Under the pieces are notes generated by a model that did no database searches, was not told the origin of the DNA, and saw only the letters and a program-made list of their open reading frames with translations. Source: Octopus vulgaris (lineage: Eukaryota). From it: a DNA stretch of 64,000 bases. Positions 14,559-21,609 of this stretch are shown here, one piece after another. The stretch spans positions 15,872,001 to 15,936,000 of the forward strand of contig OX597829.1 in the NCBI GenBank assembly GCA_951406725.2. The letters run 5' to 3'. A program made the position numbers and the translations under genes. Every line of letters starts with the position of its first letter. Positions within the stretch are counted from its first letter, which is position 1.

Positions 14559-14687
14559 GAGAATTTGGTCAAATGTGATTTTGAGTGGAACCGTAGCACC
14601 CACCAAGATATGAGAGTTGTACCTCTTAATGGAATTATATCTGAGGTTTACAAAAGATCAGCAATTAATTAAAGCTAGATTATCTTC

Positions 14688-14925
14688 CAAGCATAGATTG
14701 GCATATTTCGGTCATATTATGCGGAGAAAATCCCTGGAGAAGGACATCATGCTCAGAATGGTCAGTGGCAAGAGAGGAAGAGGCCGACCAAGAACCCGCT
14801 AGCTTGACACCCTCAAGAGTGATACAGGAAATGGACATAGCCAATCTGAAAGAAGCGGCCCAGGATAGAACTGATTGGAGGACACTGATCCAACGAGTAA
14901 CCGAGAGTCGACTTCGACTGAGCGG
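14688..14925 (+). mobile_element. 5'-truncated RTE-clade (BovB-like) LINE 3' end with (GATA)n tail
   Basis: Translates to RLAYFGHIMRRKSLEKDIMLRMVSGKRGRGRPRTR (RTE C-terminal signature); BovB-like end GAGTCGACTTCGACTGAGCG followed by GATA repeats; TSD TAGATTATCTTC at 14676-14687 and 21598-21609. Confidence 0.85.
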
Positions 14926-15314
14926 ATAGATAGATAGATAGATAGATAGATAGATAGATAGATAGATAGATAGATAGATAGATAGATAGATAGATAGATA
15001 GATAGATAGATAGATAGATAACTTTCTTTTATTAGCCACACAGGGTTGAATACAGAGGGGACAAATACAAATGCAGAGCTTTTCTTTTCGAGGGTGGAAA
15101 AAAATAAATGTAAGATTGCGATCAAAAGGGATCGAGAGGAGGAAAAAAAATTTTTTTAAATCGTGTATCACAGAAATAATGATAAAAACATTGATAAAAC
15201 AAGATTGGGTTCATCCGTGCGAAGAAAAGCCTACAGAAAAGACCACGGGAACCTCAGTCACGGAGGAAATAACCACATGAGATCAAAATGCTCTCTTTCT
15301 TTGTTTTTTACGAT

Positions 15315-18300
15315 CTACAGGATCATGCTCAAAATGGTTTCGTCACTCGCACGCACCATCTTTGCAACATTCACCCATCTTTTTTTTAATCTTTCGCGAG
15401 ACAAAACTTCCCTCTCCATTCTCACCTTCCTTTTCAAGTGGTACTTGAAAAAGTTGATGAGCGATTGGCCAGAGAGGTAAGTGTTTGTCTCTAATCCTTT
15501 CGCTCGGCTCCACCACACACATTCTTTCACCATGGCCACCAGTACGATGAAAACTGCCTTGTCTTCCCGGTTGAGGGAAGGGGGCGGAGCAATTCTCACA
15601 ATAGACTCGGCCGATAGGCGGATTCGTCCCACACGTGACAGCAGCCGTTCGGCATAAGCCCACAGGTCTGAAATGGTTGGACATTGCACGAGTGCGTGCA
15701 GAACGGTTTCGTCGCTCTGACCGCATCTCGGGCAAGTCGGTCCAGTGTGTCTGGAACCGTGTCTGTAGAGCTTATCCCGAACAGGTAATGCTTCTCGATA
15801 GCACTGCCAGGCCAGGGATCTTTGGTGGTTGTTCATAGGTCCCGGCCCGAAAGTTATCCTGAACAGGCGGGTCAGGTGTTCCTCGTCGACGCCCAGACTC
15901 TGCCCGAGTTCGTCGTCGCACCTCCCCTCCACTAATCCTCTATAGAATGCCTTTGTTGTGATGGAGTTGCACAAGTTCGATCCCGGACGGCAGAGTTGCT
16001 TGAGAGCAACGCGACACTCGCGGTGCCATTCGCCTAGCCTCGGTCTCTGCTTGATCCATGACTGTAGTTCGTCCAAGGAGACGAGCTGCGGGAAAGCGCG
16101 CCGCACAAAAGGCGACCACACCTGTTCACCGTTGTCTATGAAGCGCCGGAGATGTCGCAGTCTCAGCGCATGTCTGCGCATCATCAACCACGGCATGCCC
16201 AGCCCTCCATTTAGCGGGTGTTGACAGCAAATGGATCGCCTAACCATCGGAACGTTTCCCTTCCACAAGAAGCGGAAGAGTATACATTCCAGTTTGGTGA
16301 TGGTAGGGTCGGGACAAGGCACGACGGTCAGACGATATACTCGATGACGGATGCGATGTACGCGTTCGCCACCTCCGCCCGACCTTTTAGGGATAGATTT
16401 CTCTCAGCCCATTTCTGGGTGAGAGTAGCCACACTAGGCGTTATCTCGCCCCAGTTCTTCTCCATTTGGAGGTCCGGACCGAACCAGACCCCGAGCAATT
16501 TAACCGGTCCGTCCGTCCAGCGTCCCACGATGGAGACGCTGTTGGACGGCATGGGCCTGCCGAGCCGCAAGCCCACTGACTTTTCCCGGTTAATTTTTGC
16601 TCCCGTTATCGCTTCGTATTCTTTTAGTGTCCCGCCGACCAGCTCTATGTGCTCGTAGCTCGACACTATGACGGTGACGTCATCCGCGTATGCAGACACG
16701 CTCCTCCCGCATCCCAGCTCTCGTGGCATGCCCCTCAGCGTCGCCAGTTTCCGCAGTAGTGGCTCAAGAGTCAATACATACAGCAGCGATGAGAGGGGGC
16801 ATCCCTGACGAACCGAACGCATGATGTTAAAAGGTCTGGATAGATGACCATTTACGCGAACTACTGAGCGGATGCCGCTGTATAAGGCAGCGATCCAACC
16901 GCGGAAAACTGGACCGAAACCAGCCGCTTTAAGGACAGCCTCGAAGTAGTGATGGTCTACCCTATCGAAGGCTTTTGATTGATCCAAATTGATCAGCGCC
17001 CCACCCATGCCAGGATTCTTAACTACCCTGTCTATGATGTAGCGCATCAGATGGAGGTTGTCATGAATACTTCTACCCGGCACGGCGCATGTTTGCGCCT
17101 TGTCGATTAGTTTCTTGATGACAAGCGCCAACCTCTCGGCTAACACCTTGGCCAAAATTTTCAAATCTGCGTTGAGCAGAGTGATGGGCCTGAAATTATC
17201 TATGACGTCCCCCTTGTTTGGGTCTTTCTTAATCAGTGCCACTGATCCTCGCTTTACAAAAGCAGGAATACTCCCGTTTTTCTGCCAGTTGCAGTAGACA
17301 GCTGCCAAGACGCTTCCAAACAAGTCTGGCATATGAAAATAAAGTTCGTAGGGCAGACCATCCAAGCCTGGTGACTTGTCTATCGCGCAGCCTACCATCG
17401 CATCCTGTACGTCCGCAGCTGTGATAGGCCTTTCACAAGACTCCACCTCTTTTGCTGAGAGTCGTGGCAAGGCATGCAGGTAGGCACTAAAGTCCACTCT
17501 GCGTTCTGACCCACCACTTGTCCCAAACAGTTGGGTGAAGTGTTGTTGAAAAGCTCCACACATCCTTTTAGGCTCGAGCAATTCGCGCCCCTGTTCATCT
17601 ATAAGAGACTTGATGGTGGCTCTGTTGCCTCGTTGCGTCTCCACCACTCGGGCCTCTTGGGCGGCTCCAACTCCTTCGTTCATCAGAGCACGCATCCTAG
17701 CTCTGACAACGCATCCCTCGTGTTTGGCGTTGAGGTGTTGGTCGAGGACCAATCTCGCCGCCAGCACGTTGGACGCGATGCCAGTTCTAAGTGCCTCTTC
17801 TAAAGCCTTAACTAATTCTCCCTCTATTCTATTTCGGTCTAATGCTAGTGCTTTACTGTATCTGACTGATTCTGCTTTAATTGCTTTTTTTAGAGCATAC
17901 CACCATCTGTTGTTGATGATGGTACCCGTCAAAGCTCCCTTAACTAATGTTCTGATCCGGTCCCTGTAAACCTGTCGTGCTGTAAAAGACGCGTTCAGTT
18001 TCCAGTAACCAGGACCCTGCCTATGTGTCTTATCTAAGTCAAGTGTACAAGTCACAAACTTGTGATCTGTGTAACTGTCTATATGAAATTGTGGACAACC
18101 TACGCTATTTTTATCTATTGTCCTACAGAATACTCTATCTAAGTATGATCTGGACGACCCGATGCGGTTACTCCATGTCCACATTGGCACATTCGGGTGG
18201 TCCAGTCGGTACCTGTCAGACAGTTGGAAACGTCTGAGCAGGTCTTTGAGGCATTTGCATCCCCTTCTATTGCTATCTCTGCCCACGTAGTCTAGATGCG

Positions 18301-20890: not shown

Positions 20891-21224
20891 TGCAAAGTCA
20901 TTGATGATTTTACTTTGCGCGCATAAATTCTTTTTTTTTTCTCCTAGCGTTTCCAGTCTAGGAGAAAGCTGGTCGATAAAGGAACGCGACCATCGTTCTA
21001 CAATACAATTTCTTGACATTTTCAAAATGTCGAGAAAGAAATTACAAAAGTTAAATAGGGTTGAAACTGTCCCTAGGGGCGAATTCCTCCCATGGAAAAG
21101 CACTCAAACGAAAGTTGGGTGCCTTACACACCTTATTTACAAAAATGTACACAAAATATGGGCTATAAATAGTCAAAATAAACGATTACCTTCGGAGCCG
21201 AAGTGACAGCACGTCCATAGACAG

Positions 21225-21602
21225 AGATAGAGATAGATAGATAGATAGATAGATAGATAGATAGATAGATAGATAGATAGATAGATAGATAGATAGATAG
21301 ATAGATAGATAGATAGATAGATAGATAGATAGATAGATAGATAGATAGATAGATAGATAGATAGATAGATAGATAGATAGATAGATAGATAGATAGATAG
21401 ATAGATAGATAGATAGATAGATAGATAGATAGATAGATAGATAGATAGATAGATAGATAGATAGATAGATAGATAGATAGATAGATAGATAGATAGATAG
21501 ATAGATAGATAGATAGATAGATAGATAGATAGATAGATAGATAGATAGATAGATAGATAGATAGATAGATAGATAGATAGATAGATAGATAGATAGATAG
21601 AT
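21225..21602. repeat. (GATA)n microsatellite, about 375 bp and nearly perfect
   Basis: Directly visible. Others at 14925-15020, 42752-42822, 44241-44516, 50313-50463 and 50764-50912. Confidence 0.99.
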
Positions 21603-21609
21603 TATCTTC

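Follow-up and report, generated by a model that had tools for sequence, protein, structure and literature searches.

Within a 64,000-nt window of the Octopus vulgaris genome (contig OX597829.1 of assembly GCA_951406725.2), which is the whole stretch of DNA analyzed here, two retrotransposons of different groups are found together with two long GATA arrays. The locus is bordered by two copies of a 12-nt direct repeat, TAGATTATCTTC, both on the plus strand. The last C of the left copy (14676-14687) is shared with the 5' junction of a 5'-truncated RTE-type LINE fragment (approximately 14688-14929, plus strand), and the right copy (21598-21609) begins with 5 nt that are the end of a (GATA)93 array (21231-21602, plus strand). 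The RTE-type fragment runs into a (GATA)24 array (14925-15020, plus strand), and between the two arrays, both of which are 100% pure, lies a full-length L1-group (Tx1-like) LINE of 6.2 kb on the minus strand (15021 to approximately 21216; copy 1), followed at its 5' end by a degenerate GATA/GACA-like junction (21217-21230, plus strand). The proximal array is considered to be the left part of the RTE tail, and the distal array is likely its right part.

The RTE-type fragment comprises the last ~80 codons of an ORF and was recognized by tblastn with the proteins P0001, P0021, and P0022, to whose C-termini it is 56-77% identical. Its frame is disrupted by one in-frame stop codon and one 1-nt frameshift, and its terminal stop codon, TAG at 14927-14929, sits within the first GATA units and overlaps the tail. 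A single ORF of ~1000 amino acids with an AP endonuclease and RT, in an element of about 3.2 kb, was used as the criterion for an RTE build. Relatives of P0001, which are EN and RT proteins of ~1000 amino acids, several of them from 3.0-3.5-kb contigs, appear to have this build, and the window fragment, which carries no RT domain, would be assigned through them. Among the matches no named RTE reference was found; some of them are called "Craniofacial development protein 2", a label typical of misannotated BovB-like ORFs.

To survey the RTE family, 4 of the 24 listed public runs were placed on positions 14560-14944, including three contig runs (X5, X16, and X17) and one raw-read run (X20), which may derive from other individuals or species. 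Numerous contigs were placed in X5 (2175), X16 (1544), and X17 (1712), all of them on the RTE part, suggesting that the RTE is a high-copy family in these three runs. The left flank (14560-14676) had a depth of 0 in all three contig runs, and X20 placed nothing. The word shares of the runs (0.3-0.57) probably come from the SINE and RTE repeats of the query and provide no evidence of the locus itself in the runs. In metagenome and viral contigs, the 3'-end pattern of the RTE had 0 matches.

These contigs also reveal how other family members end. At least 74 contigs in X5, 51 in X16, and 70 in X17 follow the GATA run for 6-17 nt before continuing into unrelated sequence (agreement 0.38-0.61), and a further 221, 162, and 179 contigs, respectively, extend past 14944. 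No alternative letter was seen at 14925-14944 among those listed. The fall in depth over 14924-14944 was not used for estimating tail length, given that the same edge effect occurs on the 5' side. Because other copies run at least 6-17 nt into GATA before divergence, the contig data indicate that (GATA)n is the tail of this RTE family, with the ended tails observed being short (2-4 units). The presence of a GATA tail in other RTE copies had been set beforehand as a check on the initial annotation, and such tails are present.

At the opposite end, at least 26 contigs in X5 and 19 in X17 leave the window sequence at 14687 and share a common upstream sequence, which reads LEARIT, as in P0001. Since family contigs depart at this position with a common LEARIT upstream, the window sequence ATTATCTT is not family sequence. 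The overlap at the 5' junction of the RTE amounts to one C. Compared with the contig majority, the fragment has 6-7 differences in about 240 positions and is thus ~97% family-like. In addition, the left flank contains AAGCTAG (14672-78), a 7-mer of the family that is located 3 nt out of register, and the chance of sharing such a 7-mer is ~0.4% (891/200,000). This match may reflect imperfect pairing that favored truncation at this point, and it leaves room for a different 5' boundary of the RTE.

The direct repeat noticed in the initial annotation is exact at both 14676-14687 and 21598-21609, and no extension is possible on either side. When up to one mismatch is allowed, TAGATTATCTTC occurs three times in the window versus 0.66 expected, a number reached in 5 of 100 shuffles. 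The bare count is unimpressive; what makes the repeat significant is where its copies lie. At 14687, homology to other RTE copies starts exactly where the left copy ends. The right copy lies at the end of the distal array, as had been stated, and straddles it: 5 nt (TAGAT) are inside the array, which ends at 21602, and TATCTTC is the sole non-repetitive part. A positional null, formulated post hoc, was obtained by asking at 126,964 positions how often a word whose end lay within 3 nt of a window position was identical to one overlapping the array end or starting just after it, with at least four non-array bases required in the latter word. Such coincidences were found at 0 of the 126,964 positions for 9-, 10-, and 12-mers and at 70 for 8-mers.

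Target-site duplications of RTE elements are described as mostly 7-15 bp in length, most commonly 10-12 bp (PMC6007223, citing Ichiyanagi and Okada 2008). The accessible part of the same source reports that tail and target overlap by one to several bases, which is ascribed to RNA-DNA pairing at priming. Of the 12 bases of the putative duplication at this locus, 7 are unambiguous and 5 coincide with the tail. Considering that its length and tail overlap are as expected for RTE elements, and that the positional null gave 0, the TAGATTATCTTC pair is likely the RTE target-site duplication, which lends support to the reading first given to the 12-mer; the left 12-mer is not plain RTE sequence. The 5-nt tail overlap at TAGATTATCTTC exceeds the 1-2 nt given in that part of PMC6007223 for animal RTE elements, and the T stretch described there about 10 nt upstream of RTE targets is represented at this one site by TT at 14665-66. 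As another source of the direct repeat, double transduction driven by the Tx1 element was considered and rejected, as transduction would have to occur on both the 5' and the 3' side and 14687 lacks a poly(A). A Pfam search of the outer flanks in six frames, in which a split old gene was sought, yielded nothing above the cut-off in 12 of 12 frames, and no second copy of either unique outer flank was found in the window by blastn.

The inner LINE has a two-ORF layout. Its ORF1 region (21103-18803) consists of four stop-free pieces and has a CCHC knuckle, and its ORF2 (18754-15315) encodes EN, RT, and zf-RVT with one frameshift near 16330 and no internal stop (3416 nt). Exo_endo_phos, RVT_1, and zf-RVT score above the Pfam cut-off, and zf-CCHC is slightly below it in copy 1 (19.3 versus 20.8) and above it in a second copy of the same group (copy 2). 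An AATAAA motif is located near the 3' end, with no poly(A) after it. Against PDB sequences, ORF2 matches human L1 ORF2p with E=1e-53 (residues 9-799) versus E=3e-20 for the best R2 match, L1 and R2 being the only full-length LINE proteins among the 16 PDB matches. Based on the two-ORF layout, the domains, and an ORF2 closer to L1, the inner element is an L1-group LINE. It is regarded as Tx1-like, and its assignment to the Tx1 clade is putative. None of the 28 relatives looked up bears the name Tx1, and 25 of their 28 clusters are unnamed; the nearest named protein relative is from Argonauta hians (55-56%), which points to an octopod host. An atlas search returned generic EN and RT clusters only, the 5' pattern of the LINE had 0 matches in viral contigs, and 0 of 44 metagenome contig stretches were confirmed as ORF2 relatives. 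Families of both groups have been described as recently active in Octopus vulgaris (L1-Tx1 and RTE; PMC13282606) and as expanded in coleoids (PMC8967140); in the available main text of PMC13282606, the words nested, GATA, target, and tail are absent.

The two elements also differ in their degree of decay. Disablements number 2 in 242 nt in the RTE fragment versus 1 in 3416 nt in ORF2 (binomial P=0.013), and 2 in 242 nt versus 4 in 5714 nt when the three breaks of ORF1 are added (P=0.022), a comparison that involves 3-6 events, with assembly indels possible among them. Because it has fewer disablements, the inner LINE is probably younger than the RTE piece, an indication that is weak but consistent.

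It is highly probable that this arrangement arose by nested insertion, in which an RTE with a (GATA)n tail came first and the antisense LINE subsequently entered this tail and split the array. The earlier proposal that both GATA arrays are halves of one RTE tail divided by the 6.2-kb LINE is strengthened by the GATA tail of the family and by the start of RTE homology at 14687. Nesting at this locus appears well supported by the sequence of the occupied site. In this process, the 5'-truncated RTE would have inserted first and duplicated the 12-base site TAGATTATCTTC, with its RNA tail pairing with TAGAT at the nick and thereby priming reverse transcription. Synthesis would have halted after about 240 nt, leaving the 1-nt junction overlap, perhaps with help from the nearby 7-nt match. 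The RTE tail may then have lengthened by slippage; growth from 2-4 units to 24 plus 93 units has to be assumed. Later, the AP-type endonuclease of the LINE would have nicked this TATC/GATA array in the way that (TC)n and (TTC)n are nicked by Kibi and Koshi, respectively, and the LINE would have inserted in the opposite orientation inside the RTE tail, generating two array halves that both went on expanding. By analogy, the locus may work like those of Kibi/Koshi-type microsatellite-targeting LINEs, here acting on an RTE tail; insertion order, slippage, and the specificity of the endonuclease are what we infer in this scheme.

Two further copies of the same LINE group are present in the window. 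Copy 2 (44517-50309, minus strand) is full length, has 76-84% nucleotide identity to copy 1, and carries GATA arrays at both ends with the same 3' junction register as copy 1 (AAGTT/ATCT in both). No RTE was detected beside its site by blastn or tblastn. Copy 3 (approximately 42950-44240, minus strand) is 5'-truncated and more decayed, and its truncation point adjoins a GATA array shared with copy 2. The three copies are mutually 75-84% identical and all have one orientation relative to GATA. Differences between copies 1 and 2 by codon position are 71, 50, and 171 across 491 codons; since they lie mostly at third positions, the two copies represent separate lineages that had been active rather than recent duplicates. 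Five of the six ends of the three copies touch a GATA array, either directly or within 15 nt, and the sixth lies within a mixed, degenerate repeat, with a GATA array some 130 nt away. GATA arrays adjoin the 5' ends of all three copies, and GATA arrays away from the LINE copies occupy 0.28% of the window. In the accessible part of PMC4494074, target preference is recognized when >20% of copies are flanked by one repeat; here 3 of 3 window copies touch GATA arrays, a proportion that covers two independent sites.

The inner LINE therefore appears to prefer GATA arrays of whatever origin. RTE tails are one target source and not a required one, because copies 2 and 3 touch GATA without an adjoining RTE. 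The suggestion that one LINE makes targets for another is borne out at one of the two independent insertion sites in the window; the other is without RTE. Similarly, nesting had been put forward as favoring targeting over tail addition; targeting is indeed favored, the better argument being that each of the three copies has a GATA array at its 5' end, and the nesting is compatible with repeat units having been added by the inserting element as well.

Several other explanations for the locus deserve consideration. If the direct repeat were due to chance, the RTE would start at AAGCTAG (14672) with a mutated junction and would have inserted at the border of a GATA array that was there before it, perhaps with the LINE already inside. 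AAGCTAG and ATC do recur in the family sequence immediately upstream of the junction, the 7-mer at the low chance given above, and the window has many GATA arrays that are unrelated to RTE. However, a copy that otherwise closely resembles its family would need to have undergone two indel-type changes in the space of 8 nt, the far end of the distal array would have to match over 8-9 nt by chance (70 or 0 of the 126,964 positions), and an RTE landing at an array edge would duplicate GATA units, not TATCTTC 6.9 kb away. A chance repeat is thus very unlikely. An even smaller probability is given to a single event in which the antisense LINE and the two arrays were already part of a read-through RTE transcript and were copied with it as a 6.9-kb unit, the nesting having occurred at the source locus. 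Identical geometry is expected from such a transcript, which is compatible with all data of this locus alone, but decay is more advanced in the RTE part than in the LINE part (P ~0.01-0.02), no second composite is present in the window, and RTE proteins are generally thought to recognize their own 3' end.

Alternatively, the LINE might carry its own (TATC)n tail, build the arrays itself, and have reached a short RTE tail through annealing or coincidence. All intact 3' ends run straight into ATCT repeats in one register, no poly(A) follows AATAAA, and ended RTE tails have only 2-4 units, as would be expected in that case. On the other hand, a 3' tail leaves unexplained the 5'-end arrays of the two full-length copies and the array where copy 3 is truncated. 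In addition, the distal array terminates in the RTE duplication, so that tail addition on its own has as slim a prospect as a chance repeat. A mixed case, with targeting plus added repeat units, may apply. Finally, two loci could have been joined through their GATA arrays during assembly, considering that long perfect arrays are hard to assemble and that the runs examined contained no locus-spanning read; yet both flanks are assigned to one site by the outer direct repeat, which a mis-join would not create, rendering this extremely improbable. The lengths of the GATA arrays could nevertheless have been misestimated by the assembly.

Nested insertion into an RTE tail, the preferred explanation, has several known counterparts. 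According to the accessible parts of the literature, the Tx1-clade elements Kibi and Koshi target (TC)n and (TTC)n, respectively (PMC4494074, PMC3812793; also PMC4640811, PMC3747384), and crocodilian Tx1 families sit in (TTCC)n/(TTTC)n (PMC4494074, PMC3812793). These elements and the one described here are all L1-group LINEs with an AP endonuclease, one microsatellite on both sides, and a fixed orientation; the target here is (TATC)n/(GATA)n, in an octopod host. Insertion of Tx1-type LINEs into other transposons is also described: Tx1 of Xenopus inserts into Tx1D, and Tx1-Mar into Mariner-N4_AMi (PMC4494074). While a Tx1-type LINE lands in another transposon in these cases as well, the target there is the body of a DNA transposon, whereas here it is a simple repeat serving as a LINE tail, in addition to arrays of other origin. 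For the outer element, RTE-clade microsatellite tails include (CTGAA)n in BovB and (GTAA)n in RTE-1_AC_1 (PMC6007223), and LINE tails are well described as microsatellite sources (PMC3812793). LINEs of the BovB/RTE-1_AC_1 type share with the RTE fragment a 3' microsatellite tail, a duplication of 7-15 bp, and a tail/target overlap, and a (GATA)n tail is absent among the tails listed in the accessible part of the PMC6007223 table. In the portions of the literature covered, no Tx1-type element that targets (GATA)n/(TATC)n was found (Repbase or Kojima & Fujiwara 2004 may record one), nor was an RTE tail as a Tx1-type target; the supplement of PMC4494074 may bear on GATA targets.

Mammalian L1 and Alu elements insert into the poly(A) tails of older L1 and Alu copies. 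In that system, as here, the tail of one element becomes the target of a later retrotransposon, but the same machinery acts in both steps, whereas two LINE groups and a tetranucleotide repeat are involved here. An explicit statement of such L1/Alu insertion was not found in the accessible literature, including the part of PMC3024322 available.

Microsatellite targeting by Tx1 elements and the presence of Tx1 in other transposons are already known. What the locus offers is a rare independent marker, namely the duplication of another element, that a GATA array predates an L1/Tx1-type LINE, which helps to tell targeting from tail addition, a distinction normally ambiguous for microsatellite elements. 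In addition, the locus points to a LINE lineage preferring (GATA)n/(TATC)n. If RTE tails supplied a large share of targets genome-wide, two LINE groups would be linked in their dynamics and with the microsatellite content of cephalopod genomes, a conclusion for which one locus is insufficient. An unlikely but more far-reaching scenario is that the long GATA arrays of this lineage arise mainly as RTE (GATA)n tails and that a GATA-specific Tx1-type LINE lives largely on targets provided by this unrelated LINE clade. Such a producer-consumer relation between retrotransposons, if true, predicts that bursts of RTE are followed by bursts of Tx1 and that Tx1 copies lying between RTE target-site duplications are in strong excess.

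Among contigs from the public sequencing runs X5, X16 and X17 aligned to window positions 14560-14944 are ones whose RTE GATA tail is followed by a second truncated RTE beginning near 14754, with a short TA-rich stretch separating the two in most of the rows listed, and such tandem copies are present in all three runs. At the 5' end of the RTE piece (14688-14929, + strand), the motifs AAGCTAG and ATC of the flank 14672-14687 recur, out of register, in the RTE family sequence immediately 5' of the truncation point. Judging from these sequence matches, imperfect, extended microhomology at 14672-14687 may have guided the truncation. 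A gap of approximately 120 nt separates the RTE insertion from the end of a high-copy SINE-like repeat on its upstream side (14330-14558; at least 10 related stretches within the window), and one X5 contig has this same SINE end fused directly to a truncated RTE.

The terminal ~45-55 nt of the SINE-like repeats at 4250-4420 (- strand) and 37560-37733 (+ strand) are similar to the L1/Tx1-type LINE at its 3' terminus (79-81% identity; E values of 5e-5 and 6e-4), a resemblance by which these repeats and the LINE could possibly represent a SINE/partner-LINE pair. Neither of these two SINE-like copies has a GATA array following it.

Among relatives of the LINE's ORF2 in the P0125 protein cluster, those from Patella caerulea carry locus tags lying close together (SNE40_003393 to 003415) on contigs listed at identical size, which suggests a tandem cluster, the pattern expected of a site-specific element.

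Within the octopus window, two L1/Tx1-type copies are arranged in tandem at 42754-50448 and have one GATA/GACA array (44241-44516) in common, which we read as a target hit repeatedly by diverged L1/Tx1-type lineages.
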